Positions 19,725-35,012 of a stretch of DNA of 54,763 nt are shown piece by piece. A model generated the notes under the pieces. That model was not told the origin of the DNA. It saw only the letters and a list, made by a program, of their open reading frames with translations, and did no database searches. Position 1 is the first letter of the stretch; every line of letters begins with the position of its first letter. The stretch lies in IMG/VR virus record IMGVR_UViG_3300047284_000338, positions 1 through 54,763 of that record. The stretch is one strand, 5' to 3'. Origin of the DNA: a virus (lineage: Duplodnaviria; Caudoviricetes). Position numbers and translations under genes: made by a program.

Positions 19725-20307
19725 GCTCTACGGCCCGCTTGCGAAGTTCATCGGCAAGCGCGTGCTTTATGCAGATGTGGCAACCGCGGCTGAAGCTGTG
19801 CGCTTCTTGCTGGCAAATTGGCCCACGGTCGAGAAGCATATGGCTGATCAGCACTACCGCGTCAGCGTCGGGGGATACGACATCGCTCTCGAAGAGCTGC
19901 ATCATCCCGCCGGCCAGCAAGAGATCAAGATCGTCCCAGTGGTCGCTGGCGCTGGAACGGTCGGGCGGATTCTGGCCGGGGTTGCCTTGGTGGCGCTCGC
20001 GATCGCAATCCCGGGGATCGGCGGCGGCGTCGCTGCCACGATCTTCGGTACGAAATTTTCGGCGCTCTCGCTGGCAATCGGCGGCGTCGGTCTAAGCCTG
20101 GCTCTCGGCGGCGTTGCGCAGCTGCTTACACCAGTGCCACAGGTTCCGCAGGTCGGCAAGGATTCCGACAAGGACCCTCGCAAGTCTTATAGCTTCAGCG
20201 GAATCCAGAACGTGTCGAGACAGGGCGTTCCGGTACCGGTGGTCTACGGCGAGACCATCGTGGGCTCAGTGACCATCAGCGCCGCCGTTGACATCAGCCA
20301 GACATGA
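19708..20307 (+). CDS. Tail assembly protein I
   Basis: [38 protein letters not shown]. Confidence 0.93.
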
Positions 20308-23300
20308 CCGACATTCAACTGATCTCTGGCGCCGGCGGTGGTGGTGGCTGCTTCCTCGGCCATACCCTGATACGCACACCCCAGGGCTTGCGTCCGATCG
20401 AGACGCTCGACCGCGGCGATCAAGTATTGAGCTTCGACGATCAGGGCCAGCTACACACGGCGACGATCCTGAAGGTCCACGTCCATGAGGGCGAGCGCGT
20501 GGTGCGCTACCGGCTGTGGGGCGGTGCGGAGCTCGATGCCACACCAAACCACTGGGTACTGAACCAGTTCAACGCCTTCGTGGAGATCGGCACGCTGGGC
20601 GATGACGACTGCCTGGTCGACGAGAACGGCCATCTGCGGCCGATCGTCGGGCGGACTGACCAGGGCACGGGCACGGTGTACAACCTGACTGTCGAGGGTC
20701 ATCACACGTTCATTGCTGGCGGCATTAGGGTCCACAATGCCGGCTTGGGCCTAGGCATTGCCGGTTCAGGCGGCTTTGGCGGCGGCGGCAAAGGCGGCGG
20801 CGGCGGCACCAGGACTCCGACTGAGGCAGCCGATGACCTGAATAGCAGCGCCACCGTCGAGGTAATCGATCTCCTTGGCGAGGGCGAAATCGAAGGCTTT
20901 GCCACGCCATCGAAGGCCGGACTGGCCCGTGACAGCGCGGACTGGAACCGCGCCATGCTCAAAGACATCTACCTCAACAACACGCCAATTCTTCGACAGG
21001 GCGCGAGCAATTCTGCGCCCGCCGATGGCGACTACAACTTCAAGAACGTCGGAATCGAGGTCAGATACGGCACCCAAGCGCAGCAGCCAATCAACTCCAA
21101 CACTGGCAGCGGCGCTTCGGCAAATGAAGTTGCGGTCGGAGTTGTTGTCGAGAAAAACGTCCCTGTCACCAGGACGATCACGGATGTCAATGTCGACGCC
21201 GCAAGGGTGACAATCTCTTTCCCGCAGTTCCAGCAGTTCACGGACCAGGGCGACATCGTCGGCACCAGCGTCCAATTGCAGATCGCGGTGCAGTACAACG
21301 GCGGCGGCTTCACGACTGTCATTACTGACACAGTCACCGGCCGGTCTGGCGATCAATATCAGCGCGACTACATGGTGAATTTATCCGGCGCTTTTCCAGT
21401 CGACATTCGTGTAACGCGTGTCACGGATGACAGCAACAGTACCAAGTTAATCAACGCATTTACGTGGACCAGTTACACGGAAATTGTCGCGAAAAAATTT
21501 CGGTACCCGAACAGCGCATTAGTCGGAATGAGGGTTAATGCTGAGCAGTTCAGCAGCATCCCTACGCGGAGCTTTCGAGTCCGCGGACTAAAGGTTCAGA
21601 TCCCGAGCAATGCGAACGTTGACTTGGCCACGGGGCGTCTGGTTTACTCCGGCGTGTGGAACGGCACGTTCGGGGCCGCGCAGTGGACCTCGGATCCTTG
21701 CTGGTGTCTTTGGAATCTGTTGACCAGCAAAAGGTTTGGATTTGGTGATCACATCACTGCGGCAAGCTTGGACAAATGGGCCTTTTATTCGGCTAGTCAA
21801 TATTGCAACGAGCTCGTTCCGACCGGCTTCGGAGGCACTGAGCCTCGCTTCTCACTGAACTGCAACATCCAGACAGCGGAAGAAGCTCACAAGCTGATCA
21901 ACGACTTGTGCAGCGTGTTCCGGGCGATGCCCTACTGGGGCACGGGTGCGCTGACAGTGGCGCAGGACAAGCCCACAGATCCGACCTACCTTTTCACTTC
22001 CGCCAATGTTACCGAGGAGGGCTTCTCCTACTCGGGCAGTGACTCCAAAACGCGGCCGACGGTGGCAGTTGTGTCTTACCTCGATCTCACCACGAGAGAG
22101 ATCGCTTACGAGGTAGTCGAAGACGCCGCTGCAATGGCAAAGTACGGAGTCGTCACCTCAGAGATTGCTGCTTTTGCATGCACCTCCCGCGGCCAGGCTG
22201 CTCGCCTGGGTGAATGGCTCCTTTACTCAAATCAGTACGAAACAGAGGTCTTGAGCTTCACCGCGTCGGTCGATGCGGGTGTCCTAGTCCGCCCAGGACA
22301 GGTGATTGAGGTGGCGGATCCTGCTCGTGGCGGCGCAAGACGGGGTGGTCGTGTCGCCTCGGCAACAACAAATACCATTACGGTCGATAATCCGGTCGAT
22401 CTTCCTGATAACGGCGGCACGATTTCAGTCATCTTGAAAGATGGCAGCCTAGAAGCTCGGCCGGTTGTTACACGTGTGGGTAGCACTTTGACTGTTAGCC
22501 CGGCTTTCTCGTCGGCGCCGGGTATCAATTCCCTTTGGGTCTACAGCGGTGGCGGCATCCAGGCGACGCTGTGGCGCGTCTTGACGGTTCAGGAGCAGGA
22601 CGGAGCTCGGTACTCGGTGACGGCTTTGAGCTACAACCCGAGCAAGTATGACTTCATTGAGCGCGATCGGCCGTTGCAGTTCAGAGATGCCACAAACCTG
22701 AACCTAATCCCTGCCGCGCCTACGCGCCTGTCTCTCGCCGAAGCTCTTTACACGTATCAGGCCGAAGTGCGGGCAAAGGTGATCATCACCTGGCGCCAGG
22801 TGCGCGGTGTGAATCAATACCGAGTGAGGTGGCGGAAAGCCAGTGGCAACTGGAATACGCACACCACCCAGAGCCCTGACCACGAAATCTTGAACATCAC
22901 CCCGGGACTGTTTGAGGTGGAGGTGTTTAGCTTGAACTCTGTTGGCCAGATCAGCACGACAGCGCTGACAGGGAGCATCAACGCTTTAGGTAAGACGGCC
23001 CCGCCGAGCAATGTATCGGGTATGACGTATGCAATCGACAGCGATCTTGGCGTTTCGTTGAGCTGGAGTCCGGTTTCGGATCTAGACATCAAAGACTATG
23101 AGATTCGGCGAGGTGGCACCGACTGGGGCAGCGCTACACTTTTGGCATATGTAAAAACGACACGCTATGTTCTTGGGCTTATTGATCCCAGTGTTACAAG
23201 GTACTGGGTCAAGGCGAGAGACACGAGCAACGTTGTAAGTCAGAGCGCCGCTTCAACAACGGTCGTCATTACAGCGCCTGGTGCGCCTACCGTGACGCAC

Positions 23301-25058
23301 GCCATCCAAGATCCGCTTGCGATCATCTCCTGGACCACACCATCTGGATCGTACCGCCCAGATTATTACGACCTGCGGTACGGAAACACTTTTGCCGGCG
23401 GTGTGGGCGTCACCCGCGTGTATGGCAACAGTTTTAGTGTTCCAGTCACGTGGAGCGGCAGCCGAACTTTTTGGGTCGCAGGTGTCGATCCGGCAGGCAA
23501 TACTGGTACCGCCGGGTCGCGAGTAATTACTATTTCCGCAGCGCCGGCTCCGACTGTTTCGGCAGCATTCGCTGGAAGCAGCTGCACTCTTTCCTGGACA
23601 CGCGTCGACGGCTCACTGCAGACGTTTTTTTACGAAATTCGCTACGGAGCTTCATGGGAAACCGGCACTAAGGTCACCAAGATCGGCGCGGATGGTACCG
23701 GTTATTCTTTGACTGTCACATGGTCAGGTTCAAGGACCTTCTGGGTAGCGGCAATCGATGCCAACGGAAACTATGGCGCCGCGGGCAGTGTCGTGGCGAC
23801 TGTGGGACTTTCTCCGGCGCCATCGCTGTCCAACACGTTCTCTGGTCCGAATGCGCAGCTTAGCTGGCAACCTGTCAAGGGCACGCTGGAGACAGCCTTC
23901 TATGAGATCCGTCGCGGCAGCGCTTTTGCCAGCGCTACGGTTCAAGGTAAGGTAAATAGCAACTTGTTCACTACCAAGGTAGACTGGACTGGCACCGCTA
24001 AATTTTGGGTTGTCCCTGTAGATACTAACGGCGGCTATGGCGAATCAGCCTCTATCGATGTCACTTTGCCGGCCCCTTCCCAGCCCTCCATCGCTGTTCA
24101 GGTTGTCGACAACAATGTCTTGTTCCGGTGGCAGGACTGCACGACAGTGCTTCCAGTCGATGCTTACGAGTTGCGCCGAGGCTCGAATTGGGCGTCTGCA
24201 ACGGTAATTGGCACTAAGTCAGGCCTGTTTACCTCGGTATTCGAAACAACAAGCGGCTCGTTCACGTACTGGATTGCCGCGATTGACAGCTCGGGCACGT
24301 ACGGGGCGCCAGGCAGTGTTTTAGCGGTAGTCAGCCAGCCGCCCGACTACGTTCTGCAGCTTGACCAAAACTCTAACTTCAGCGGTACGAAGGTAAATGC
24401 AGTTCAAGAAAGTGCAACATTGTTATTGGCGGTCAACACTACGGAGACCGTTGAGCAACATTTTACCTCGAGAGGCTGGACGTCACCACAGGATCAGATC
24501 AACGCTGGTTACAGTTTCTGGCTGCTTCCGTCCGCGACATCGGGCTCTTACGAAGAAATAATTGACTACGGCGCTGTGGTGGGTGGTACTCGCGTTAGCC
24601 AAACGCTCACGAGCACGGCCGCCACCGGCTCAATGGTCGCCACTCCTAAAATAAGTGTAAAGAAACTTGCAACCGATGCCTGGACGGACTACCCCGACGT
24701 GGACCAAGTGTACGCCTCCGATTTTCAGTACATTAAGTTTCGATACGATTTCAATAGCGCCGGTAACGACGACCTACTATTGGTCACGAGCTTAAACTAC
24801 AGAATGGACCTGAAGCTCAAGAAGGACTTCGGATCGGGCACGAGCTCTGCTAGTGACGTCGGGGGAACTACAGTGAACTTCAATCTGAGCTTCATTGACG
24901 TGCAGTCCATTACCGTGACACCGTCTGGGACGGCTGCCCGCGTGGCCATCTATGATTTTGTGGATACCCCCGGCCCCACGAGCTTCAAGGTGCTCCTGTT
25001 CGACACCAACGGCAACCGGGTTAGCGGCGGCTTCAGCTGGAGCGCTCAAGGAGTCTGA
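20304..25058 (+). CDS. Tail tip / host-specificity protein J with N-terminal Hint domain and FN3 repeats
   Basis: LLGEGEIEG, YPNSALVG, WTSDPCW, DKWAFY, ACTSRGQAARLGEW, FN3 repeats. Confidence 0.95.
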   Translation: MTDIQLISGAGGGGGCFLGHTLIRTPQGLRPIETLDRGDQVLSFDDQGQLHTATILKVHVHEGERVVRYRLWGGAELDATPNHWVLNQFNAFVEIGTLGDDDCLVDENGHLRPIVGRTDQGTGTVYNLTVEGHHTFIAGGIRVHNAGLGLGIAGSGGFGGGGKGGGGGTRTPTEAADDLNSSATVEVIDLLGEGEIEGFATPSKAGLARDSADWNRAMLKDIYLNNTPILRQGASNSAPADGDYNFKNVGIEVRYGTQAQQPINSNTGSGASANEVAVGVVVEKNVPVTRTITDVNVDAARVTISFPQFQQFTDQGDIVGTSVQLQIAVQYNGGGFTTVITDTVTGRSGDQYQRDYMVNLSGAFPVDIRVTRVTDDSNSTKLINAFTWTSYTEIVAKKFRYPNSALVGMRVNAEQFSSIPTRSFRVRGLKVQIPSNANVDLATGRLVYSGVWNGTFGAAQWTSDPCWCLWNLLTSKRFGFGDHITAASLDKWAFYSASQYCNELVPTGFGGTEPRFSLNCNIQTAEEAHKLINDLCSVFRAMPYWGTGALTVAQDKPTDPTYLFTSANVTEEGFSYSGSDSKTRPTVAVVSYLDLTTREIAYEVVEDAAAMAKYGVVTSEIAAFACTSRGQAARLGEWLLYSNQYETEVLSFTASVDAGVLVRPGQVIEVADPARGGARRGGRVASATTNTITVDNPVDLPDNGGTISVILKDGSLEARPVVTRVGSTLTVSPAFSSAPGINSLWVYSGGGIQATLWRVLTVQEQDGARYSVTALSYNPSKYDFIERDRPLQFRDATNLNLIPAAPTRLSLAEALYTYQAEVRAKVIITWRQVRGVNQYRVRWRKASGNWNTHTTQSPDHEILNITPGLFEVEVFSLNSVGQISTTALTGSINALGKTAPPSNVSGMTYAIDSDLGVSLSWSPVSDLDIKDYEIRRGGTDWGSATLLAYVKTTRYVLGLIDPSVTRYWVKARDTSNVVSQSAASTTVVITAPGAPTVTHAIQDPLAIISWTTPSGSYRPDYYDLRYGNTFAGGVGVTRVYGNSFSVPVTWSGSRTFWVAGVDPAGNTGTAGSRVITISAAPAPTVSAAFAGSSCTLSWTRVDGSLQTFFYEIRYGASWETGTKVTKIGADGTGYSLTVTWSGSRTFWVAAIDANGNYGAAGSVVATVGLSPAPSLSNTFSGPNAQLSWQPVKGTLETAFYEIRRGSAFASATVQGKVNSNLFTTKVDWTGTAKFWVVPVDTNGGYGESASIDVTLPAPSQPSIAVQVVDNNVLFRWQDCTTVLPVDAYELRRGSNWASATVIGTKSGLFTSVFETTSGSFTYWIAAIDSSGTYGAPGSVLAVVSQPPDYVLQLDQNSNFSGTKVNAVQESATLLLAVNTTETVEQHFTSRGWTSPQDQINAGYSFWLLPSATSGSYEEIIDYGAVVGGTRVSQTLTSTAATGSMVATPKISVKKLATDAWTDYPDVDQVYASDFQYIKFRYDFNSAGNDDLLLVTSLNYRMDLKLKKDFGSGTSSASDVGGTTVNFNLSFIDVQSITVTPSGTAARVAIYDFVDTPGPTSFKVLLFDTNGNRVSGGFSWSAQGV
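20349..20738 (+). other. Hint (mini-intein/BIL-like) domain, 130 aa
   Basis: Block A CFLGHTLI, block B ATPNHW, block F VYNLTVEGHHTF, terminal VHN; +1 residue is Ala. Confidence 0.9.
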
Positions 25059-26713
25059 TGGCTAACTGGTCCAACCCCACGCTTACCAGCACCTACTCCA
25101 ACTTTCTGGCGGACCTGAAGGCCAGAGACGAGGACCTGGCAAAACAGTTTGACGGCCAGACCGTCAGCAACCTGGTCACGGGCGCAGTTCGATGGAACAG
25201 CTCGATCAACCGCTGGCAGAAGTGGTCTGGCACGGCCTGGGGCGAGCTGGCGACCACTTACGCCCTGACGGGGCTGAGTACGACCGGCAACGCCAATATC
25301 GGCGGCACGTTGACCGTGACGGGCGCGACTGCGCTGGCAGCGGCAACAGCAACCACGCCGGCCACGGCCGACAACAGCACCAACATCGCGACGACAGCCT
25401 ACGTCCGGGCACAGGGCTACGCCGCTCTGGCGAGCCCTGCTTTCACTGGCACGCCAACCGCGCCAACCGCAGCAGTTGGCACGAACACGACCCAGCTTGC
25501 GACCACCGCGTTCGTGATTGGTCAAGGCGCATCGGCTGCCCCTTTGGGGACGGCCAGCACTGCAACGACTGGAACATCTGCACGTTACGCCCGCGAGGAT
25601 CACAGACATCCAATTGACTTCCTGGACTACGCCTATATCACCAACAGTCCTTGGAAGAACAACTGTCGGCTTGGGACCACCGCCAACCTCACGGCGACTT
25701 ACGCCAACGGCACGGCTGGCGTAGGTGCAACGCTCTCTAACTCAGGCACATTGGCAGCGCTGTCGCTCGACGGCGTTGCGGTTGCGGTGAACGACCGGGT
25801 CCTGGTCAAAGATCAGACCACTGGCGCCCAGAACGGTATCTATACCGTCACCAACGTTGGCTCGGCCTCAGTGGCATGGGTGCTCACGCGAGCGACAGAT
25901 GGTGACACGGCTGCGGAGATGGCCGGAGCGCTGGCTACCGTCGACGCTGGCACGGCAAACGGCGGCAGGCTTTTCACTACCACCTTTGCTGCCTCGGGTA
26001 CTATCGGAACCACTGCGGTCTCTTGGTTCGAGATTCCCACCGTCAGTAGCCCGGCGTTCACTGGCACCCCGACGGCACCTACTGCGGCTGCTGGCACCAA
26101 CACAACGCAGATTGCGACGACGGCGTTTGTAACCAGTTCGCCGTCATTCACTGGCACACCGACGGCTCCAACTGCCGCAGCCGGCACGAACACAACGCAG
26201 ATTGCAACTACCGCGTACGTCACGGCAGCCGCAAACCTGAAAGCAAACCTGGCTTCGCCTGCTTTTACGGGCACCCCGACCGCCCCGACAGCAGCGGCCG
26301 GCACCAATACCACTCAAGTAGCGACGACAGCGTTCGTAAGCGCTGCGTTTACAGCCCGGAGCGTCACGGCAGGTGCTGGCTTAACCGGTGGCGGCACCCT
26401 TGCGGCAGACCGCTCAATTTCGCACGCGGACACGTCCAGTCAGGCTAACGTTTCACTGACCACCGGCAACGTGGTCAGCTCAATCACCCTAGACACTTAC
26501 GGGCACGTAACCGGAATCGGCAGTGCAAATCTCAACACACACTTCTTCAACACAGTCAGCAACTGCCATGGCGCCGTGCAAAACTGCGCGGAGTTTCAGT
26601 GCGGCATTTCAAACTGCGCTACTCTTACCGATCAAGGAGGCAACGTCGCCCTGGGCGGCATTGGCTACGCTCAGTACAACTGCAACTGCGACTGCAACTG
26701 CGCACCAGGCTAA
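25058..26713 (+). CDS. Tail fibre protein with Asn-Cys-rich C-terminus
   Basis: Repeats of SPAFTGTPTAPTAAAGTNTTQIATTAFV; DRVLVKDQ..NGIY domain; ends ...YNCNCDCNCAPG. Confidence 0.88.
   Translation: MANWSNPTLTSTYSNFLADLKARDEDLAKQFDGQTVSNLVTGAVRWNSSINRWQKWSGTAWGELATTYALTGLSTTGNANIGGTLTVTGATALAAATATTPATADNSTNIATTAYVRAQGYAALASPAFTGTPTAPTAAVGTNTTQLATTAFVIGQGASAAPLGTASTATTGTSARYAREDHRHPIDFLDYAYITNSPWKNNCRLGTTANLTATYANGTAGVGATLSNSGTLAALSLDGVAVAVNDRVLVKDQTTGAQNGIYTVTNVGSASVAWVLTRATDGDTAAEMAGALATVDAGTANGGRLFTTTFAASGTIGTTAVSWFEIPTVSSPAFTGTPTAPTAAAGTNTTQIATTAFVTSSPSFTGTPTAPTAAAGTNTTQIATTAYVTAAANLKANLASPAFTGTPTAPTAAAGTNTTQVATTAFVSAAFTARSVTAGAGLTGGGTLAADRSISHADTSSQANVSLTTGNVVSSITLDTYGHVTGIGSANLNTHFFNTVSNCHGAVQNCAEFQCGISNCATLTDQGGNVALGGIGYAQYNCNCDCNCAPG
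25430..26340 (+). repeat. Coding repeats of tail-fibre motif SPAFTGTPTAPTAAxGTNTTQxATTA(F/Y)V
   Basis: Four near-identical copies in the translation, plus a partial upstream copy. Confidence 0.85.
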
Positions 26714-26716
26714 CCA

Positions 26717-27409
26717 ATGAAATCACACTCTTCTTACGCGTCGATTCTGCCGGCCGCTCCGGGGCCGGAAGGAGTACCACTGACTGGCTCAGTGCAGCTG
26801 CAGTCAGATGGTATTTCTTTTGACCTGGCAATGGGGCCCAATAGGCAGGTCGCGACCCTTTCGTTTCAACAGGTTGGCTCCCTGTCCGAAGATCGAGGAT
26901 TGGTGTCTGCTTGCTCTGATTTATTGCTAGCTCGAATTGAAATTGAGAACACAATTATTAGGACGCTTCCTACTCGTCAGAGCATTCGCAATTGGCGTGA
27001 TCGCTTGCCTTTTGTAATGATAGCGACACCTTGGAAAGGATGTCCTATTCAGGAGTGCTCGCTTTTGGCGGTAACTTATCCTGGCGTAACATATACCGGC
27101 TTTGATTTTGGGTCAGCTGTTAGCGACATGCAAGCGTGGCTAGACGCAAAGCTTTACAGTCCTATTCTGTTTGACGGACCAAATACCGTAGCGGCCGGCA
27201 GTAGCGCAATTGTTCGTGTTACCGCTCCGCCAAACATGACGGCTTACCTTGATTGCGATGCAGGAAACCTCAGTTATTGGCGCGTAAAAGGCGAAAAGAA
27301 TGTCAAGGTTTCTGCCGTAGACCTCCTGCCGGGAGACTCTATTAAAATCAAAGCCGGCTACCGCAACTGGCCTGGCGAATCTGATTTCTTGATTCAAGTC
27401 ACCGAGTAA
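26717..27409 (+). CDS. Hypothetical protein (accessory gene of the fibre/radical SAM module)
   Basis: 230-aa ORF tightly spaced between the fibre and radical SAM genes; visibly lower GC. Confidence 0.7.
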   Translation: MKSHSSYASILPAAPGPEGVPLTGSVQLQSDGISFDLAMGPNRQVATLSFQQVGSLSEDRGLVSACSDLLLARIEIENTIIRTLPTRQSIRNWRDRLPFVMIATPWKGCPIQECSLLAVTYPGVTYTGFDFGSAVSDMQAWLDAKLYSPILFDGPNTVAAGSSAIVRVTAPPNMTAYLDCDAGNLSYWRVKGEKNVKVSAVDLLPGDSIKIKAGYRNWPGESDFLIQVTE

Positions 27410-27416
27410 CACCTAA

Positions 27417-29399
27417 ATGGCCGTTTTCGCTCTTCGATGCTTTGATCCCAGTGACAAGACTAACAAGGTTGTCTATTATGACAACTCAAACAATCTCATC
27501 ACAGACGGGCACGACACTGCTCCTCATACTGACCAGCCAGTCCTGACTCCGCATCGCGTATCACGTGAAACTCCAGCCGGGAAGGCTGCGCTGCCTCGCG
27601 TGCTCAAAATCCAAATGGGCTTGAGCTGCAACTACTCTTGCGAGTATTGCGTGCAGCGTTTTGTGCCCCATGCCGATGAAACCAGCGCCGTGATGGTGCC
27701 GGCGTTCGTCGAAGCTCTGCGCAGCTGGTTCAACCCGCCTAATGGCGGGGAAGGACGCCGCATCGAGTTCTGGGGCGGTGAGCCGCTGGTCTACCTGAAG
27801 ACCATGCGCCCTCTGGCTGAAAAACTTCGAGCAGCCTACCCCAACATCAGATTTTCAACTATTACCAACGGCTCACTGCTCACTCGCGAGATTGTCGATT
27901 GGTTCTACGACATGGGTTTTTCCCTGGCCATATCTCACGATGGCCCAGGCCAGGCGGTGCGCGGGATCGATCCGCTGACACGTCCCGCAACACGAGACGC
28001 ATGGCTTTACGCTTACCAGCGACTCAGCCCTTACCGGATCTCCTTCAACACCATGATGAACCGCGAAAACCGATCGCGGTGGGCAGCAGCTCAGTTTTTT
28101 CGCGAGCTGACTGGCAATCCAGGTGTGGTGGTCGGAGAAGGCAGCATTGTCGATGCTTACGACGAAGGTGGCGTCTCAATGTCGCTCAGGCCTGAAGATT
28201 TCAAGGTCTATGCAAATCAAGCATGGGCAGAAATAAGACAAACTGACGTCGCAGCCAACTTTGGAATTATTCCTTCCCGAGTGAACGAGTGGCTCAACGC
28301 TTTCAATACCATGCAGCGAGCCGAGACTCTCGGCCAAAAGTGCGGCATGGATCGAATGGACTCAGTGGCAGTCGACCTGCGCGGCAACGTGGTCACCTGT
28401 CAGAACGTGTCGGCATCGGCTACCGCTCCAAACGGGGAGTCGCACAAGATCGGCCACATGTCCAGCATGGAGGACGTGAAGCTCAACACGGCTACCCACT
28501 GGAGCTTCCGCGACAAGTGCTCCAAGTGCCCCGTGCTCCAGGTCTGCAAAGGCTCTTGCATGTTCCTGGAGGGTGAGTTGTTCGAGGTGAGCTGCAACAA
28601 CGCCTACTTTGATCACGTGCCAATGTTCGCAGAAGCGCTATTGCAGCGGACCGGGCTTGTACTGCGTGAAATCGTGGGCGACTTGCCAGCAGAGCGCCGC
28701 GATCCATTCGGATTGGCTTATCCGGCGCCGCTTCTGACATCTTCGACCAGTCCTGAGCTGCAGAAGTGGCGTTTGCACAGTGACTTTATTGAGGCATACT
28801 ATGTGCCTGACGTTCTAAACAAAGAAGAGTGCAAGAGAATCATTGGCGCCGCTGACACTTGCATGGCTCAGGACTTTACTGTTGGCAAGGGCGGGTTTCG
28901 GGTTTGGAGCGAACACCGGACTAGCGCAAGCTCGAAGATGCCATTAGTCGATTCCGATTTTTGCATGGAGCGAGAGATCGACGCCCGTCTGGCTGCGATT
29001 ATTGGATGGGACCCCGCCGCAAGCGAGCCCATGAGATTGTTGCGCTACGAACCAGGTCAGCAATTCAAGCTGCACGCGGACTATTTTCCAGATGTCAAAA
29101 ATGAGTGGACTGAGCCCGGCGGTCAAAGAGTTTGGACTGCATTGCTTTACCTGAACGACATGGAGCAAGACCAGCAAGGGGAGACCAATTTTCCTGACGC
29201 CGGTATTCAGGTTTCGCCTCGAGCAGGATCTGTATTGTTGTTCCGAAATCTGCTTGATGATGGTCAATGCAATTACTTTGCCCGCCACGAAGGACGGCCT
29301 CCGGCATTTGGTGTTAAGTTTTGTTTGACCAAGTTCTTTCGACAAGAGCCTGGTCGCAATCCCCTGTACGCTTCAGTCAATCAAGAGGTCTTCGCTTGA
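27417..29399 (+). CDS. Radical SAM/SPASM protein fused to a C-terminal prolyl-4-hydroxylase-like 2OG-Fe(II) oxygenase
   Basis: CNYSCEYC (CxxxCxxC), FWGGEPL, TNGSLL, ISHDGP; SPASM KCG...TCQ...CSKCPVLQVCKGSC...C; oxygenase LRYEPGQQFKLHADYF, TALLYLND, GETNFP, H...K. Confidence 0.92.
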   Translation: MAVFALRCFDPSDKTNKVVYYDNSNNLITDGHDTAPHTDQPVLTPHRVSRETPAGKAALPRVLKIQMGLSCNYSCEYCVQRFVPHADETSAVMVPAFVEALRSWFNPPNGGEGRRIEFWGGEPLVYLKTMRPLAEKLRAAYPNIRFSTITNGSLLTREIVDWFYDMGFSLAISHDGPGQAVRGIDPLTRPATRDAWLYAYQRLSPYRISFNTMMNRENRSRWAAAQFFRELTGNPGVVVGEGSIVDAYDEGGVSMSLRPEDFKVYANQAWAEIRQTDVAANFGIIPSRVNEWLNAFNTMQRAETLGQKCGMDRMDSVAVDLRGNVVTCQNVSASATAPNGESHKIGHMSSMEDVKLNTATHWSFRDKCSKCPVLQVCKGSCMFLEGELFEVSCNNAYFDHVPMFAEALLQRTGLVLREIVGDLPAERRDPFGLAYPAPLLTSSTSPELQKWRLHSDFIEAYYVPDVLNKEECKRIIGAADTCMAQDFTVGKGGFRVWSEHRTSASSKMPLVDSDFCMEREIDARLAAIIGWDPAASEPMRLLRYEPGQQFKLHADYFPDVKNEWTEPGGQRVWTALLYLNDMEQDQQGETNFPDAGIQVSPRAGSVLLFRNLLDDGQCNYFARHEGRPPAFGVKFCLTKFFRQEPGRNPLYASVNQEVFA

Positions 29400-29581
29400 A
29401 CCAGCTCAAACAACAGCTCACCGAGCTGATCGACGCTTACGGCACCGCCAGGGTAACCGGTAATCAGCTGCTGACACAGGCAGCTGCCTCCAGCTTGGTG
29501 GAGTTCCTTGAAAGCGTCGTCATCAGCAGCGACGTAGCCGTCGAGCCCTCCGAAGCCGAGCCTGCCCCCTCTGAGGACTGA
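29396..29581 (+). CDS. Hypothetical protein
   Basis: TTG start overlapping the previous stop; translationally coupled to the next ORF. Confidence 0.5.
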   Translation: MNQLKQQLTELIDAYGTARVTGNQLLTQAAASSLVEFLESVVISSDVAVEPSEAEPAPSED

Positions 29582-29718
29582 TGGCCGTCAAAGCCAAGAC
29601 AGGCGTTGCCAGGGTCGACCACCAGCCTGGTCGACCCAAGACCACCTCCATCGGGCAGGGCATGAATTCCAGGCCGCGGCGACGGGGCAAAAAGCCACTG
29701 CGCGGGCAGGGTCGATAG
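29581..29718 (+). CDS. Small basic protein (45 aa, ends KKPLRGQGR)
   Basis: Read manually: MAVKAKTGVARVDHQPGRPKTTSIGQGMNSRPRRRGKKPLRGQGR; too short for the ORF track. Confidence 0.65.
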   Translation: MAVKAKTGVARVDHQPGRPKTTSIGQGMNSRPRRRGKKPLRGQGR

Positions 29719-29892
29719 ATGGACCCCGCCACTCGGGAAAATTGGCGCAAAGTCAAGGAAGTCCTTGAGGCGGCGGGAAAAACCGACAACCACTACTACC
29801 GCCGAGCGCTTGCCATCGTGGCCGGAATGCCGGACCCATTCGATCGCTACGATGGGACCGACGCAGGCCGCAGCGATGTCAGACGACCCTAA
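29719..29892 (+). CDS. Small hypothetical protein (57 aa)
   Basis: Read manually: MDPATRENWRKVKEVLEAAGKTDNHYYRRALAIVAG...; starts immediately after the previous stop. Confidence 0.6.
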   Translation: MDPATRENWRKVKEVLEAAGKTDNHYYRRALAIVAGMPDPFDRYDGTDAGRSDVRRP

Positions 29893-30109
29893 AAGCGTAG
29901 GCGGCGTCCTGACCGCTTCGCTCCCGGCGGCCATTGCCGCCGGCATGTTTGCGATTGGTGCGCTCCTGGTCTCCATGCAGGTCCAGGCCGCCAGGATTGA
30001 AGCCACAGTGCAGGCGACAGCCAGCGCTATTCAAGACTTGAAAAACGACGCACGCACCCAGCTTGCCGATCTCGATAAGCGAGTGCGCATGCTTGAAATT
30101 CGCGAGTAA
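29876..30109 (+). CDS. Membrane protein with coiled coil (lysis accessory/holin-like)
   Basis: One TM segment plus coiled coil; lies in the lysis cassette. Confidence 0.55.
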   Translation: MSDDPKSVGGVLTASLPAAIAAGMFAIGALLVSMQVQAARIEATVQATASAIQDLKNDARTQLADLDKRVRMLEIRE

Positions 30110-30123
30110 CGTGGAGACATACC

Positions 30124-30321
30124 GTGCTCAACATCATGCGCTACCTGCCTGAAATCGTGACCGTTGCCGTCGCCGCGCATGGCCTCGCGGTGGCGATTGT
30201 CAACCTGACCCCTACGCCGAAAGACAACGAAGCGCTCGACACCTACAGCCGCATGGTGGTCAAGGTGTACCGCGCAATCGAGATCCTGGCCGGTGTCATC
30301 ACCCCACTGGTGAAGCGCTGA
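30124..30321 (+). CDS. Holin-like membrane protein
   Basis: Hydrophobic segments, LTPTPKD motif; directly before the endolysin. Confidence 0.6.
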   Translation: MLNIMRYLPEIVTVAVAAHGLAVAIVNLTPTPKDNEALDTYSRMVVKVYRAIEILAGVITPLVKR

Positions 30322-30324
30322 GCC

Positions 30325-31413
30325 ATGGCCAACCCGGCACCGATCACCTTGGAGCAGATCGTCCGGTTCAACCGGGGGCTGCCACACCAGCTGGCCGCCA
30401 TCTCCGAGCTGGAGGCCGACCTCAAGGCCAACGGCTACGAGGTGGCGATGCGCCGAGATCGGCCGTGGTTCAACACCTGGAGCCAGGACGGTAAGCAGGT
30501 GGACCTCAGTGACGCGCTGGAGCTGATCCAGCAGTTCGAGGGCTGCCACTTGGACGCTTACCCTGACCCGGCCAGCGGCGGCGAGCCGTGGACGATCGGC
30601 TGGGGCACGACCCGCTACAGCGACGGCCGCAAGGTCGAAAAGGGCGACAAGCTGAACCGCGTTGAGGCCGACATGCTGCTGCGGCAGGAGGTCGACCGGA
30701 TCGCTGACAAACTGCGCACGACCGTGCCGTTCTGGGTGGCGATGGCCGACTACCAGAAATGCGCCTTGATCAGCTTCGCCTACAACCTCGGCTCGGGGTT
30801 CTACGGCACCCAGGGCTTCGAGACGATCAGTCGCGAGCTGCGCGAGAAGAATTGGGCCGCGGTCCCGGCTGCCATGCTGCTCTACCGCAACCCTGGCAGC
30901 AACGTCGAGGCCGGCCTGAAGCGCCGCAGGGAGGCCGAGGGTAAGCTCTGGCAGGGCAGCAAGCCGGCAGCACCAAAGCAGCCTGCAACGGCCAAGCTGA
31001 CGCCTGACAGCCCGTTCACGCTGCGGGTCACGCCGCACATCACCCTGGGCGAGTTTGCGCTCGACCAGGAGGCCAGGCGCTTCGGTCACCAGCACCAGCT
31101 GGACACCGCAGCCGAGCTGGCCGCCTTCCTCGAGCGGGTGCGGATCGCGTTCGGTGGCAAGCCGATCATCATCACCAGCGGCTACAGGCCGCCGGCGATC
31201 AACCGCTCAGTGGGTGGTGCCTCGGGGTCCGAGCACCTGTACTCCCAGCCCCGCGAGGGTGCAGTGGACTTCCTGATTCACGGCGCCGACATCAAGCTGG
31301 TCCAGGACTGGTGCGACAAGAACTGGCCTTTCAGCGTCGGTTACGGCGCTCCGAAGGGGTTCGTGCATCTGGGTCGTCGCGCTGACGGCCAGCGGAGGCG
31401 CTGGGACTACTGA
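30325..31413 (+). CDS. Endolysin: GH24 lysozyme plus C-terminal peptidase M15 domain
   Basis: FEGCHLDAYPD...WTIGWGTT, ALISFAYNLG, GLKRRREAE; ITSGYR..N..VGGASGSEHL...AVD...FVHLG. Confidence 0.92.
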   Translation: MANPAPITLEQIVRFNRGLPHQLAAISELEADLKANGYEVAMRRDRPWFNTWSQDGKQVDLSDALELIQQFEGCHLDAYPDPASGGEPWTIGWGTTRYSDGRKVEKGDKLNRVEADMLLRQEVDRIADKLRTTVPFWVAMADYQKCALISFAYNLGSGFYGTQGFETISRELREKNWAAVPAAMLLYRNPGSNVEAGLKRRREAEGKLWQGSKPAAPKQPATAKLTPDSPFTLRVTPHITLGEFALDQEARRFGHQHQLDTAAELAAFLERVRIAFGGKPIIITSGYRPPAINRSVGGASGSEHLYSQPREGAVDFLIHGADIKLVQDWCDKNWPFSVGYGAPKGFVHLGRRADGQRRRWDY

Positions 31414-31444
31414 CGCGCTACTCTGACGTCGGGTGAATGTGTGG

Positions 31445-31481
31445 AAGCCCCGGCGTGTGAAGGCGCTGGGGCTTTTTCTTT
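31445..31481 (+). terminator. Rho-independent terminator ending the late/lysis transcript
   Basis: AAGCCCCGGCG-loop-CGCTGGGGCTT followed by TTTCTTT. Confidence 0.85.
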
Positions 31482-31551
31482 GCGAGTTGCTACGACACCC
31501 CGCCCTGCCGTCGCTGCCCGGATACGCTGGCCGGGTCACCTGACTCCTGCT

Positions 31552-32079
31552 GTGATCCTTCACGACATTGAGATCCGTCGACTCTGCGAGCACGACCGGA
31601 TGATCGTTCCCTTTGAGCCCGAGCAGCTCAACCCAGCCAGCTACGACGTGCTGCTGGGCAACCACCTGATGATCGAGGCGGCCGTGAGCAGCGGCCCGGA
31701 TCAGGTGCGGCTCGACATCAGCGACAACACCAAGGAGCACCCCTACTGGCTCAAGCCAGGCCAGTTCGTGCTGGCAGAGACGTTCGAGACCTTCAACATC
31801 CCCGAGGACGTCGCGGCGCAGTTCGTGCTGAAGTCCAGCCGGGCCCGGGAGGGCTACCAGCACATGCTGGCCGGGTTCTGCGACCCGGGCTGGCATGGCA
31901 GCAAGCTGACGATGGAGATCAAGAACGTCCGGCAGCTGAAGGCGCTTCCCGTGTGGCCCGGCATGAAGATCGGTCAGATGGTCTTCTTCCTGACAACGGG
32001 CAAGCCCGAGGTCTCCTATGCCCAGGTTGGGCACTACAACGACAACGCCACGGTGATGCCGTCATGGGAATCGAACTGA
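31552..32079 (+). CDS. dcd: dCTP deaminase
   Basis: QLNPASYDV, LKSSRAREG, AGFCDPGWHG, PGMKIGQMVF; GTG start at 31552. Confidence 0.92.
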   Translation: MILHDIEIRRLCEHDRMIVPFEPEQLNPASYDVLLGNHLMIEAAVSSGPDQVRLDISDNTKEHPYWLKPGQFVLAETFETFNIPEDVAAQFVLKSSRAREGYQHMLAGFCDPGWHGSKLTMEIKNVRQLKALPVWPGMKIGQMVFFLTTGKPEVSYAQVGHYNDNATVMPSWESN

Positions 32080-32696
32080 TCCACCGCACGCCCGACGCCG
32101 AGCGGCTCATCGTGAAGATGGCCCGGGTGTCCGCGCCTCAGAACGCCGACAACATGGAGACCGGGCCGCGCCTGCTGCGCTACCTGATCAGGCACAAGCA
32201 CTGGAGCCCATTCGAGATGGCTTCCATGTGCGTGAAGATCGACACCGAGCGCGACATCGCGGCCCAGATCCTGCGCCACCGCTCCTTCAGCTTCCAGGAG
32301 TGGAGCACTCGCTATGCCACAGCGCAGGAGCCGGCAATGCCGGCCCTGCGTCGTCAGGATAACAAGAACCGGCAGAACAGCTTCGACGACTTGCCGGCCG
32401 AGCTGACTGCTGAGCTGCTCGAACGGATCCAGTCGGTGTTCGGCGCCACCTCGAAGCTCTACAACGACATGCTCGAAGCCGGCGTGGCCAAGGAGACGGC
32501 TCGCCGGATCTTGCCGCTCAGCACCCGAACCACGCTCTTCATGCACGGCTCGCTGCGCTCATGGATTCACTATCTTGAGGTTCGGTGCGATCCGGCGACT
32601 CAGCTGGAGCATCGTCAGATAGCCGACGGCATCAGGGCCATCTTCTCGGCTGAGTTCCCCACCATCAGCGAAGCGCTCTACGGCGCAGACTCCTGA
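32064..32696 (+). CDS. thyX: FAD-dependent thymidylate synthase
   Basis: ARVS, HWSPFE, QILRHRSFSFQEWSTRY ThyX motif, KETARRILP, TQLEHR. Confidence 0.95.
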   Translation: MGIELIHRTPDAERLIVKMARVSAPQNADNMETGPRLLRYLIRHKHWSPFEMASMCVKIDTERDIAAQILRHRSFSFQEWSTRYATAQEPAMPALRRQDNKNRQNSFDDLPAELTAELLERIQSVFGATSKLYNDMLEAGVAKETARRILPLSTRTTLFMHGSLRSWIHYLEVRCDPATQLEHRQIADGIRAIFSAEFPTISEALYGADS

Positions 32697-32747
32697 ATCA
32701 CGCAAACCGCCCGGCGCCCAGATCGTCGGGCTCTCTTTTCGTCACCG

Positions 32748-35012
32748 ATGTTCCCGACCACCGCACCCGCTGCCAATCCCGTTTTCTACCGCACCTATTC
32801 CCGCAAGCGCCCCGAAGGCCGTGAAAGCTGGCGTGAGGTCACAGACCGCACCGTCAATGGCCTGGTCGTTCTGGGCAAGCTCACCGAGGCCGAGACCCGC
32901 CTGATCCGGCAGCAGCAGGAGCACCTGCGTTGCCTGCCCTCCGGCCGCTGGTTGTGGGTGGGTGGCACGCCCTGGATCGAGAAGCCCGAGAACTTCTCCG
33001 GCGCCTACAACTGCACCTCCACCGATCTGATCGACTGGGAGGCGTTCGCGCTGATGATGGACCTGGCCATGATGGGCTCGGGCACCGGCGCCATCATCGA
33101 GCCGCATCTGATCGAGCAGCTGCCGATCGTCCGCAATCGCCTTGAGGTCGAGGTGGTTCAAGGCATCGGCGTGATGCCCGATGGGCGCCGCCAGCAGACC
33201 ACCACGCTGAGCTGGGCCGGCCCTGACGCCACCATCACCGTGGGGGACAGCCGGGCCGGCTGGGTCCGCGCCTACCGGCTGATGCTGGAGCTCAGCAGTG
33301 CGACCGACTTGGACCCCTTCAAGATCAGGGTGATCCTCGGCAACGTGCGTCCCGCCGGTGAGTGTCTCCAGGGTTTTGGCGGCACGGCCAACCCCGCCAA
33401 GCTGCCCGAGCTGTTCGGCCGCATGGCAGCCATCCTCAACCGGGCCAACGGCCGCCGCCTCACATCGGTGGAGTGCTGCCTGTTGATCGACGAGGCCGCC
33501 TCGGTGGTTGTCGCCGGCAACATCCGCCGCAGCGCTGGCATGCGCCAGTTCGCTGCCGATGACGACCAGGCAGCCGCCGCAAAGGACAACCTGTGGTCTC
33601 AGGGCGAGGACGGCGCCTGGCGCATCGACCCAGAGCGCGACGCCCTGCGGATGGCCAACCACACGCGGGTGTTCCACGAGCGCCCGAGCCGCGAGGTGGT
33701 CCTGGAGGCTGTCACCAAGCAGTTCTACTCCGGTGAGGGTGCCATCCAGTTTGCTCCCGAGGCCATCGCCCGCTCCAACCGCGACCTGCTCACCAGTGAG
33801 GAGCTGCGCCGCCAGTTCGTCAACGTCTATTGCGACGAGGGCCAGGAGGTCGCTGCCAGCCTGCTGCTGCACTTGCGCCCTGAGATGGAGCTGGAGGAGC
33901 TCGATCACCGCCTAGGCCGCTACGGCCTCAACCCCTGCGGCGAGATCCTGGGCACCGACTTCCACTGCAACCTGTCTGAGATTCACCTGAACCAGCTCGA
34001 CCCCTCAGACGAGAAGGGTCAGGACGATGCGTTCCGCGCCGGCGCCCTGGCCGTGGCCGCCCTGCTCAACCACGAGTTTGTGGTCGAGCGGTACCGCAAG
34101 AGCCGCGAGCTCGATCCGATCGTTGGCGTCAGCTTCACCGGCCTGTTCGATTTCTTCGTCCATGCCTTCGGTGCTGACTGGCTGGAGTGGTTCGCCGCCG
34201 GCCGCCCTGACACCGAGACTGGCCGCGTCTACAAGGTCGCCGAAGCCGCTTACCTAAAGCGCTGGCGCAACGTGGTCGAGGGCACCGTCTGGGAGTATTG
34301 CGACCGCCACGGCCTGCGTCGCCCCAACCGCTGCACCACCGTGCAGCCCGCCGGCACCAAGAGCCTGCTGACCGGCGCCTCGCCCGGCTGGCACCCGCCC
34401 AAGGCCCAACGCTTCATCCGCCGCATCACCTTCCGCAAGAACGATCCGGTGGCGATGGCCTGCATCGACTTCGGCTACAACGTGATCCCCAGCCAGTCCG
34501 ACAAGGACGAGCAGGGCCGGCTGCTCGACAACCCGTTCGACGAGCGCTGCACCGAGTGGCTGGTGGAGATCCCCACCGCTGTGAGCTGGGCCGACCTGCC
34601 CGGCGCTGACGCCGTCGACATCAGCCAGATCTCGGCGCTCGCGCAGTTCGACTTCTACATGCAGGTGCAGAAGCACTACACCGCGCACAACACCTCGGCG
34701 ACCATCGAGTACCGGGAGAACGAAATCGAACCGCTTGCTGACGCCATCTATCAGGCCATTCAGGACAACGAGGGTTACATCAGCGCTGCTCTCCTGGCAC
34801 GTTTTGATGCAAATGAGACGTTCCCGCGCCTGCCATTCGAGCCGATCGACAAGGCCACCTTCGAGAAGCTCTCGGCCGAAGTGGAAGCTCGCCGCGGCGA
34901 GGATGATTTTTTTGCGGCCCTGAAGCGCTATGACGTAGGTGAGCTTGTCGAAGCGGGTCCAGCCGGGTGCGATGGAGACAAGTGCCTTTTCGCCGCCGCC
35001 TCGCCCAAATGA
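32748..35012 (+). CDS. nrdJ: Class II (adenosylcobalamin-dependent) ribonucleotide reductase
   Basis: YRTYSR, PSGRWLW, YNC, VVAGNIRRSA, NPCGEI, TTVQPAGTKSLL, C-terminal CDGDKC; no beta subunit nearby. Confidence 0.93.
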   Translation: MFPTTAPAANPVFYRTYSRKRPEGRESWREVTDRTVNGLVVLGKLTEAETRLIRQQQEHLRCLPSGRWLWVGGTPWIEKPENFSGAYNCTSTDLIDWEAFALMMDLAMMGSGTGAIIEPHLIEQLPIVRNRLEVEVVQGIGVMPDGRRQQTTTLSWAGPDATITVGDSRAGWVRAYRLMLELSSATDLDPFKIRVILGNVRPAGECLQGFGGTANPAKLPELFGRMAAILNRANGRRLTSVECCLLIDEAASVVVAGNIRRSAGMRQFAADDDQAAAAKDNLWSQGEDGAWRIDPERDALRMANHTRVFHERPSREVVLEAVTKQFYSGEGAIQFAPEAIARSNRDLLTSEELRRQFVNVYCDEGQEVAASLLLHLRPEMELEELDHRLGRYGLNPCGEILGTDFHCNLSEIHLNQLDPSDEKGQDDAFRAGALAVAALLNHEFVVERYRKSRELDPIVGVSFTGLFDFFVHAFGADWLEWFAAGRPDTETGRVYKVAEAAYLKRWRNVVEGTVWEYCDRHGLRRPNRCTTVQPAGTKSLLTGASPGWHPPKAQRFIRRITFRKNDPVAMACIDFGYNVIPSQSDKDEQGRLLDNPFDERCTEWLVEIPTAVSWADLPGADAVDISQISALAQFDFYMQVQKHYTAHNTSATIEYRENEIEPLADAIYQAIQDNEGYISAALLARFDANETFPRLPFEPIDKATFEKLSAEVEARRGEDDFFAALKRYDVGELVEAGPAGCDGDKCLFAAASPK

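Follow-up and report, generated by a model that had tools for sequence, protein, structure and literature searches.

A candidate phage cassette for radical SAM-dependent maturation of a Cys-rich tail fibre end

Introduction

Why should a phage keep the gene of a radical S-adenosylmethionine (SAM) enzyme close behind that of a tail fibre whose Cys residues are crowded at its C-terminus? This question is raised by IMG/VR virus record IMGVR_UViG_3300047284_000338 (Duplodnaviria; Caudoviricetes), the whole stretch of which (54,763 bases, estimated completeness 100%) is called the window here. Three consecutive genes at 25058–29399 encode a tail fibre, an accessory protein and an enzyme in which a radical SAM/SPASM half is fused to a 2-oxoglutarate (2OG)-Fe(II) oxygenase domain. 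On balance, these genes probably constitute a dedicated phage-encoded maturation cassette that modifies the C-terminal tail of the fibre. The finding on the fibre tail is far beyond chance and is conserved across phage lineages. The features on which the argument draws are as follows, with lengths in amino acids (aa) and the basis of each assignment in brackets.

20304–25058, plus strand: J-like central tail tip protein, 1584 aa (Pfam matches, given below)
25058–26713, plus strand: tail fibre protein, 551 aa, proposed substrate (open reading frame (ORF), PHROG and tblastn matches)
26561–26710, plus strand: Cys-rich C-terminal module of the fibre, residues 502–551, eight Cys (Cys positions, alignment)
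26678–26701, plus strand: terminal repeat NCNCDCNC, residues 541–548, followed by APG and the stop codon (sequence)
26717–27409, plus strand: accessory protein of family A, 230 aa (recurrence of the family among the loci, AlphaFold2 (AF2) model)
27417–29399, plus strand: predicted bifunctional enzyme, 660 aa, radical SAM/SPASM fused to 2OG-Fe(II) oxygenase (Pfam, NCBIfam)
27618–28073, plus strand: radical SAM core, residues 68–219, CxxxCxxC at C71/C75/C78 (PF04055)
28341–28595, plus strand: SPASM region, residues 309–393, seven-Cys motif (TIGR04085, invariant columns)
29034–29342, plus strand: 2OG-Fe(II) oxygenase domain, residues 540–642, HxD...H and a downstream Lys (PF13640)

Tail fibre and its Cys-rich end

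The 551-aa protein belongs to the phage tail fibres, as judged by its likeness to annotated ones and by its place behind the tip protein in the tail module. Matches were obtained to 20 PHROG families, ten of which are named tail fiber protein and one tail fiber assembly (best match phrog_2631, E 6.5e-33), and tblastn matches to annotated tail fibres in 55 phage records are confined to the middle part of the protein. The gene at 25058–26713 also occupies a tail-fibre position because it is preceded by the J-like gene, the end of which it overlaps by one base.

A first-pass annotation, made from the sequence alone, had noticed one Cys in about 500 residues of this fibre and eight in the last 50 or so, six of them as Asn-Cys. 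The Cys positions (203, 503, 510, 515, 520, 542, 544, 546 and 548) bear this out: one lies within the first 502 residues and eight within the last 49, and Asn precedes six of the eight tail Cys (503, 510, 520, 542, 544 and 548). The tail reads ...SNCHGAVQNCAEFQCGISNC...YNCNCDCNCAPG, and its C-terminal end is NCNCDCNCAPG. By a hypergeometric calculation, chance placement of at least eight of nine Cys in the last 50 of 551 residues has a probability of 2.2e-8, and a run of three or more xC units, (xC)3+, in which N, D or A accounts for at least two of the x, is found in one of the 309 window ORFs of at least 60 aa on both strands, namely the fibre. In two other viral loci, stand-alone proteins of 68 aa (L059) and 74 aa (L070) align only with the last ~70 residues of the window fibre. 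Because they cover only its C-terminal module, the Cys module is an autonomous unit.

Radical SAM/SPASM enzyme and its fused oxygenase

The gaps of 3 and 7 nucleotides (nt) earlier reported between the three genes are as claimed when the stop and start codons are read: the fibre gene ends with TAA at 26711–26713, followed by CCA and the ATG of the accessory gene at 26717, and the latter ends with TAA at 27407–27409, followed by CACCTAA and the ATG of the enzyme gene at 27417. A scan of 19500–31500 gave five promoter-like sites against 3.6 expected and ten terminator-like sites against 11.4 expected. These counts are not above chance and hence give no direct sign of operon structure.

The SPASM motif consists of C-x9-15-G-x4-C, a gap, C-x2-C-x5-C-x3-C, another gap and a final C. 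In the 660-aa enzyme, residues 68–219 match Pfam Radical_SAM (PF04055; 39.9 bits, cut-off 29.5) and residues 309–383 match the NCBIfam SPASM model (TIGR04085; 32.3 bits, cut-off 27). Both C71-x3-C75-x2-C78 and the seven SPASM Cys (C309-x13-G323-x4-C328, C368-x2-C371-x5-C377-x3-C381 and C393) are invariant in all 15 aligned sequences, the window enzyme and 14 relatives, so that the CxxxCxxC motif and full SPASM Cys cluster attributed to the enzyme at first sight hold in every position. By these matches the enzyme falls within the SPASM subgroup of the radical SAM superfamily. Its C-terminal part (residues about 440–660), which the first-pass annotation had overlooked, is a 2OG-Fe(II) oxygenase domain: residues 540–642 match 2OG-FeII_Oxy_3 (PF13640; 52.1 bits, cut-off 27) and are assigned on that basis to the P4H-type of the 2OG-Fe(II) oxygenase superfamily. 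The H-A-D and the later His and Lys are kept in both fused proteins, the window enzyme and P0007 (641 aa, 66% identity), which is the sole other such fusion among the matches listed. Nearly all of the best 120 relatives in the protein databases are stand-alone proteins of 442–460 aa with 50–66% identity and no informative name, and the oxygenase domain is always absent from the radical SAM homologues found by tblastn in the records of phages RSP15, JWF and 2-1. PHROGs labels the enzyme a radical SAM domain-containing protein (phrog_1802).

Curated family models place the enzyme near the maturases of peptides made on ribosomes and then modified post-translationally (RiPPs), far below their cut-offs. 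The best NCBIfam match is the ranthipeptide maturase PapB (61.4, cut-off 340); also below their cut-offs are the anaerobic sulfatase-maturating enzyme (anSME) model TIGR03942 (59.1, cut-off 349.45), QhpD (TIGR03906; 56.5, cut-off 453), the SCIFF maturase (27.6, cut-off 425) and RumMC (23.9, cut-off 720). The nearest solved sequences in a profile search are TigE (8vpo), anSME and CteB (E 5e-13 to 9e-9). The nearest solved folds found by Foldseek are those of CteB, TigE, anSME and ChlB, CteB being the best, with template modelling (TM) scores by target of 0.47–0.62; all four are peptide- or protein-modifying SPASM enzymes. The fold model used has predicted local distance difference test (pLDDT) values mostly of 80–95 in the radical SAM/SPASM part and is unreliable in the oxygenase part. 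On these comparisons, the enzyme represents an uncurated family of its own within the SPASM enzymes that modify peptides and proteins. About 65 residues precede its radical SAM core and are modelled as three short strands (pLDDT 84–87), and models of enzymes that bear a RiPP recognition element align to it only from model positions 71–107.

The auxiliary clusters of anSME are fully Cys-ligated. The HMMER alignment indicates that the enzyme family is without the second Cys of the anSME stretch SCGMNGTC, so that one of its auxiliary clusters would have three Cys ligands, as in CteB, the open iron of which is able to bind a substrate Cys according to the available text of PMC8326336.

Co-occurrence of the enzyme and the Cys repeat

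IMG/VR contains 422 viral contigs with a gene for a relative of the enzyme, and the best 80 of them were surveyed for same-strand ORFs of at least 60 aa with an (xC)3+ run holding at least two of N, D and A. A C-terminal (xC)n repeat protein is encoded on the enzyme's strand at 70 of these 80 loci. At several others a related protein or a missing end is seen: the Cys-rich tail has NC pairs and is interrupted in L006 and L007, a Cys-rich stretch precedes a Hint-like domain in L071, the gene order differs and a downstream protein ends in ...CSNCSCGSK in L061, and upstream DNA is absent in L033, L045, L074 and L077, with the accessory gene at the locus edge in L033 and L077. The motif is present in 74 of 2087 same-strand ORFs vs 2 of 1993 opposite-strand ORFs. 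When the 84 enzyme ORFs are clustered at 90%, 70% and 60% identity, a repeat locus is included in 50 of 57, 26 of 29 and 11 of 13 clusters, respectively. SPASM homologues lacking Cys-rich fibre neighbours would have refuted the proposed pairing; they were looked for, and such a pattern did not emerge, 70 of the 80 loci being paired. Bacterial genome contigs contain 27 further enzyme loci, 24 of which carry betaproteobacterial or Burkholderiales names. The full cassette is present in 21 of the 27; the other six are short, partial or decayed except L206, where upstream DNA is present and no repeat protein was found. A cassette is also carried by the genome of Limnohabitans sp. Rim28 (L214).

The reverse survey scanned IMG/VR DNA for sequences coding for NCNC[ND]C[ND]C and gave at least 120 loci. 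The pattern is in the reading frame of an ORF in 90 of those listed, and the repeat lies within 15 aa of the C-terminus in 78. At least 3.5 kilobases (kb) of downstream DNA is available for 46 of these 78, and 45 of the 46 carry a radical SAM gene of the enzyme's family, the single one without it being a giant-virus contig. When loci shared with the forward survey are set aside, 38 remain, 37 of which have the enzyme. The 32 of the 78 with less downstream DNA hold the enzyme in 18 cases, the accessory gene only in 7 and nothing in 7, each of the last having at most 1021 nt downstream. The co-occurrence of (NC)n-ending proteins with SPASM genes, proposed at the outset as a check, is therefore found in both directions, and the functional link of fibre tail, accessory protein and enzyme is well supported by comparative genomics. 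The initial reading, in which the phage would mature its own fibre in RiPP-like fashion, is thereby supported in its link of fibre tail, accessory and enzyme (70/80 and 45/46 loci).

A reading in which these genes have no functional link and merely travel together in the late operon of one lineage is scarcely credible. Many of the fetched loci are indeed closely related (57 clusters at 90% among 84 ORFs), and the promoter and terminator scans gave nothing above chance. However, the pairing is kept at 44–61% enzyme identity and with different fibre bodies, gene orders and phage types; it is also kept across two accessory families and three oxygenase types, and when loci are found via the repeat alone.

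Several loci in and around these surveys deserve separate mention. Giant-virus contigs L124 and L202 have NC-type repeats inside other Cys-rich proteins, and L138 and L153 have them at the N-terminus of short ORFs, all without the enzyme; these are probably unrelated uses of the motif. On the Polynucleobacter necessarius chromosome (L227, 4623–7356), the radical SAM gene is in three ORFs and the oxygenase gene in two, with no repeat protein, and the locus looks like a cassette decaying in a reduced genome. Ralstonia phage RP12 (L231, 511–8081) has three radical SAM genes, ORF076, ORF077 and ORF079, the last of which shares the N-terminal motif of the window enzyme, together with ORF074, a Cys-free protein of 125 aa rich in Tyr, His and Trp. 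From its gene content, this cluster may be a sister system with a different substrate.

Repeat architecture

The families of the cassette were defined by local profile iteration on 83 loci, consisting of the 80 viral contigs, two phage records and the window. The usual order is the repeat protein, an accessory protein with an immunoglobulin (Ig)-like domain, in most cases a 2OG oxygenase and then the radical SAM/SPASM enzyme. Among phage records, tblastn finds the radical SAM enzyme in Ralstonia phage RSP15 (48.7% identity) and in Achromobacter phages JWF and 2-1 (45%), which are cultured phages of different morphotypes or hosts. In JWF, J, a small ORF and the gene of a 483-aa fibre precede a 240-aa ORF and then the radical SAM gene; in RSP15, a side tail fibre gene is followed by a homologue of the 230-aa ORF, a 276-aa ORF and the radical SAM gene.

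The repeat is carried by proteins with fibre-like bodies of 300–616 aa, which have at least three unrelated N-terminal parts, by proteins of 151–299 aa and by small ones of 68–139 aa. The number of units varies from 3 to 12, also among close relatives, and the x position is occupied by N in 66%, D in 15% and A in 11% of cases (n=567, a set partly selected for N/D). In 68 of the 74 strict repeat proteins of the forward set, the chain ends at most 6 residues past the repeat. The other six continue for 161–205 residues that start with CF(P/V)... and are Hint-type, the Pfam evidence being above cut-off in JWF, below it in four and lacking in L073 at E 0.01. The JWF fibre reads ...NCNCDCNCNCS directly before the Hint domain (Hom_end_hint, 47.5 bits, cut-off 32.1), which starts at the Cys that ends the repeat. 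Hint domains are self-cleaving, and an N-terminal acyl shift at the first Cys would cut the chain there. Cleavage at that Cys would leave a mature protein that again ends at the repeat, and the Hint-bearing forms that would expose it can be read as independent evidence for an obligatory C-terminal repeat. Stand-alone repeat genes lie 9–29 nt before the enzyme gene in L062, L063, L066, L069, L075 and L081.

These architectures bear on the idea that the Cys module is a released peptide, that is, a true RiPP such as a bacteriocin or a signal, the fibre copies being precursors or decoys. Among 114 non-redundant repeat proteins, 34 have at most 150 aa, and the 68- and 74-aa forms are of the size of RiPP precursors. 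However, 56 of the 114 have at least 300 aa with fibre-like bodies, no protease or exporter was recognised among the recurring cassette families, and the cassette belongs to the tail module: it comes behind the J-like gene in the window and in JWF and is flanked by tail genes in RSP15. A released peptide is hence very improbable. For the window system, a RiPP in the strict sense, with a short leader-core precursor and proteolytic release, is not what the gene products suggest; the stand-alone repeat proteins of 68–139 aa at other loci might be such RiPPs.

Variations on this architecture were also observed. Two to four radical SAM paralogues of the enzyme's family occur in L040, L066, L087, L094, L101, L135, L140 and L158, with four beside a 79-aa repeat protein in L101, and two or three repeat proteins each in L062, L066 and L163. 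Small proteins of L094, L121, L135 and L158 have extended series of C-Q-x triplets, such as QTCQGCQSCQTCQGCQKCQ, ahead of the NC repeat and an acidic end, ...SDDS(GGG), so that these cassettes have a second Cys periodicity. In L099, L109, L175 and L203, an extension of ~170 aa that starts with SKI(V/I)C.KL and is not Hint-like follows the NC repeat; that of L099 has no Pfam match at E 0.01, and the radical SAM gene lies upstream of the repeat gene in L099 and L109.

Accessory protein

Accessory family A, that of the 230-aa window ORF, is found in 55 of the 83 loci, nearly always immediately behind the repeat gene, and the unrelated family B, typified by JWF gp029, in 20 further ones (75 of 83 in total). 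In most of these 75 loci the accessory gene directly follows the repeat gene, with an oxygenase gene intervening in some; it adjoins the repeat gene even where the enzyme is 4–5 kb distant (L051, L052 and L060) and stands after the enzyme gene in L069, L075 and L079. The 230-aa protein has no Pfam, NCBIfam or PHROG match. Its AF2 model, built from 25 family members (pLDDT 91.2, predicted TM score 0.83), consists of two beta-rich domains, the C-terminal one of which is Ig-like. Foldseek against the PDB gives generic Ig folds that cover half of the protein (TM by query at most 0.28), whole-fold matches in BFVD are to uncharacterised phage proteins of 252–315 aa only (seven matches, TM by query 0.63–0.76), and the ESM Atlas has no match of at least 0.8. 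As these matches are only generic Ig folds or uncharacterised phage proteins, the candidate roles of recognition element and known chaperone were rejected. Co-folding of fibre residues 465–551 with the accessory alignment gave a score of 0.00 in two runs without controls, an outcome that speaks for neither side. The accessory is a phage-specific protein, which from its gene position may act as a chaperone or a substrate presenter.

Oxygenase partners

An oxygenase-like gene or domain is present in 66 of the 83 loci, the window included. It takes the form of a 2OG-FeII_Oxy_5 (PF13759) protein in 56 loci (43.9 and 51.2 bits for the two in L003), of the R046 family, typified by RSP15 ORF046, in 9, and of a P4H-type domain in 2, namely the fused domain of the window and a separate ORF after the radical SAM gene in L070 (59.9 bits). 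The L070 cassette holds both a 2OG-FeII_Oxy_5 gene and a P4H-type gene. That oxygenases occur in three forms without homology to one another suggests that the Cys module undergoes a tailoring step. Prolyl hydroxylation of the terminal A-P-G was considered as the general role and rejected: the 74-aa repeat protein of L070 has no Pro, so that proline hydroxylation is not the general role of the oxygenase. The Asn share at the x position is 0.62 with an oxygenase vs 0.40 without (21 and 14 distinct motifs; Mann-Whitney p 0.009), a p value that ignores relatedness and is to be read with the proviso that some loci without an oxygenase may be truncated. For the R046 family, the ESM Atlas offers a lead to viral clusters of Asp/Asn beta-hydroxylases (PF05118; feature score 0.95, TM 0.59/0.68).

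The recurrence of these partners also bears on a structural alternative, in which the Cys repeat would serve the trimeric fibre as a site for metal, iron-sulfur clusters or disulfides, and the radical SAM enzyme acts elsewhere or loads the site. T4 gp37 carries iron-binding HxH repeats. An x-C-x-C strand would have all thiols on one face, which would suit a three-fold axis. Furthermore, a metal-binding tip is known in the T4 short tail fibre (cited in the available text of PMC2938197), and the authors of the CrpA study weigh metal binding for a modified Cys-rich protein in the text available from PMC13692751. However, such a site leaves unexplained the pairing with radical SAM/SPASM genes (45 of 46 evaluable loci listed; 26 of 29 clusters at 70% identity), the presence of an accessory and an oxygenase of its own, and the stand-alone repeat proteins directly before the enzyme gene. 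This alternative is accordingly improbable.

Proposed mechanism

The Cys tail of the fibre is very probably the substrate of the radical SAM/SPASM half of the enzyme, as gene order and co-occurrence suggest. In the proposed mechanism, this half would act on the fibre Cys module with its terminal (Asn/Asp/Ala-Cys)n repeat. A 5'-deoxyadenosyl radical would take a hydrogen from the beta (or alpha) carbon of the Asn, Asp or Ala at x, and the sulfur of a nearby Cys, held on an auxiliary [4Fe-4S] cluster, would close a ring, with 2 Da lost per link. The fused 2OG-Fe(II) oxygenase would tailor the same module, probably by hydroxylating Asn/Asp, and in other phages a separate 2OG-FeII_Oxy_5 gene or the R046 family would replace it. 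The 230-aa Ig-like accessory protein would be a fibre-specific helper that acts as a chaperone or offers the tail to the enzyme. Such maturation would yield a rigid, protease-resistant and redox-insensitive fibre end, and the tail is inferred to be the receptor-binding end of the fibre.

Given the tail as substrate, the likeliest product, with an even chance, is a series of thioether crosslinks arranged as a ladder. Along an (NC)n run, each Asn has a Cys at the third position after it, the NxxC spacing that NxxcA has at its crosslink. The acceptors in the known beta-carbon thioethers are Asn and Asp: a Cys23–Asn20 thioether in NxxcA and six Cys–Asp links in freyrasin are described in the available text of PMC8326336, and crosslinking of proteins as well as peptides by SPASM enzymes is described for QhpD on QhpC and CrpC on CrpA in that of PMC13692751. 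The Asn/Asp at x, the QhpD/CrpC precedent and the SPASM Cys pattern favour thioether formation.

The same tail could instead undergo other radical chemistry, such as conversion of Cys to formylglycine, which would place reactive aldehydes on the fibre end, epimerisation or C-C/C-O crosslinking, with the oxygenase acting before or after. Five curated models align into the SPASM region, namely those for anSME, DynA, AmcB and Clo7bot and the SPASM model at domain level, and the anSME alignment covers nearly the whole catalytic part (residues 66–381 to model 6–324; PDB 4k36 to residues 73–381). By fold anSME and CteB are equally close, anSME, like the enzyme's family, acts on whole proteins without a recognition element, and anSME and the ranthisynthases alike attack a beta-carbon hydrogen according to the available text of PMC8326336. 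However, the anSME score is 59.1 vs 349, and the family is one Cys short before the G-x4-C element. The sulfatase motif is C/S-x-P/A-x-R; it does not occur in the window tail, where no tail Cys is followed by Arg. The preference for Asn/Asp beside Cys, which is explained if these residues are acceptors, has no explanation under formylglycine formation. Chemistry of this other kind is therefore rather unlikely, and thioether formation is preferred.

Several points weigh against this proposal as a whole. The case is built on gene neighbourhood and family resemblance. The enzyme exceeds no curated family cut-off in the NCBIfam search, so that its reaction is not readable from homology; no RiPP recognition element turned up in it, in which no search aimed at one was made, and the accessory protein, as judged by its model, is not such an element either. 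Ala and Val at some x positions are without the activating side chain of the known ranthionine acceptors. The forward survey covers only 80 of the 422 enzyme-bearing viral contigs, many loci are closely related and raw counts thus overstate independence, and L013 and L076 have no repeat protein despite ample upstream DNA. The end of the RSP15 fibre, ...NTNCQCGN, fails the strict motif. A distant paralogue, RP12 ORF079 (26.5% identity), lies in a cluster without a Cys-rich neighbour; as a counter-example it was set aside, being regarded as outside the enzyme family. The oxygenase is absent from 17 of 83 loci and is therefore not obligatory. For the R046 family, no Pfam match was obtained in any of seven members, hhalign gives a probability of 0.2 against the Oxy5 family, and no Pfam domain is present among 120 listed of its 224 homologues. 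A PDB profile search with R046 gave nothing below E 0.48. Naming R046 an oxygenase is hence without sequence support, and it is kept as an ESM Atlas lead only.

A further-reaching reading, held tentatively and with rather less than even confidence, is that a cross-linked structure stands at the far end of a virion fibre in many phage lineages, in which stacked thioether rings, possibly inter-chain, are combined with hydroxylated Asn/Asp. Within this tentative reading, it would be the first radical SAM-dependent post-translational modification of a virus particle and would form a covalent, redox-proof receptor-binding tip. In the literature covered, with subscription journals and supplements outside its scope, no radical SAM enzyme acting on a phage fibre or on an (NC)n repeat is described. 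Virion proteins are generally regarded as maturing through proteolysis and self-catalysed crosslinking. If virus particles do carry a tip of stacked thioethers, this would represent a new class of virion modification and a thioether architecture of a new, repeat-based type, and RiPP-style enzymatic chemistry (radical SAM plus oxygenase) would join phage particle assembly. The modified part would probably be the fibre end, which matters for host range, and recombinant fibres and receptor-binding proteins would stay unmodified without the helper genes. For enzymology, the substrate would be a period-two Cys repeat whose C-terminal position is obligatory, in a system without a recognisable recognition element, and the enzyme family is large and without a name, as the 422 viral contigs indicate. 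The three cultured carriers and a substrate module of 68–74 aa make the system directly testable.

Neighbouring genes

The J-like protein encoded upstream of the fibre matches Pfam FNIII-A_GpJ (130.1 bits), Phage-tail_3 (68.9 bits) and, at residues 22–147, PT-HINT (30.2 bits). A Hint/intein-like domain (20304–20750) follows its 15-residue Gly-rich N-terminus, where Hint_2, Intein_splicing and Hint also match below cut-off; the domain ends in ...VHN and is followed by Ala. This domain suggests self-processing of the tail tip protein. On the 3' side of the cassette, at 30325–35012, the Pfam matches of an endolysin combine phage lysozyme with M15 peptidase, and three ORFs (212, 247 and 754 aa) resemble, by eye, dCTP deaminase, ThyX and class II ribonucleotide reductase.

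Comparison with known systems

The tail fibre assembly chaperones lambda Tfa and T4 gp38 are encoded directly downstream of fibre genes. The accessory gene likewise directly follows the fibre or repeat gene in most loci; however, the accessory protein has no likeness in sequence or fold to any named chaperone. The cassette resembles self-cleaving Hint and bacterial intein-like systems in that, in JWF and no fewer than five metagenomic loci, a Hint-type domain begins at the Cys directly behind the repeat; unlike the known domains, that of the cassette seems only to expose the repeat as a new C-terminus.

The catalytic part of the enzyme aligns with anSME over nearly its full length, and the JWF homologue has been deposited as anSME, an enzyme that acts on folded or unfolded proteins without a recognition element. 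However, no sulfatase gene or motif was seen in the cassette, and the window enzyme has one Cys fewer before G-x4-C. With a score below the TIGR03942 cut-off and no sulfatase among the recurring families, it does not appear to be a member of that family.

The ranthipeptide systems PapB/freyrasin, NxxcB/NxxcA and CteB/thermocellin likewise combine a radical SAM enzyme bearing a seven-Cys SPASM region with a Cys-rich substrate in which Asn/Asp are near. In contrast to their maturases, the window enzyme scores far below the family cut-offs (PapB 61.4 vs 340), so that by score it does not fall among the ranthipeptide or sactipeptide maturases, and a leader peptide and a protease were not found. 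The substrates also differ, the proposed one of the window being a 551-aa virion fibre and those elsewhere proteins of phage structural modules. The phage repeat has a period of two and lies at the extreme C-terminus, and the cassette adds an Ig-like accessory protein and an oxygenase.

In QhpD/QhpC and CrpC/CrpA, as described in the available text of PMC13692751, a SPASM enzyme acts on a neighbour-encoded protein substrate and links Cys to Asp/Glu or other residues; in that text the word phage has 0 occurrences. However, both substrates are cellular, QhpC being a subunit of an amine dehydrogenase and CrpA a Cys-rich protein of a methanogen, and QhpD uses a recognition element and a leader. 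By analogy, the system thus resembles one of ranthipeptide or QhpD type, in which a SPASM enzyme would act on the Cys-rich substrate encoded next door, the target here being a virion protein.

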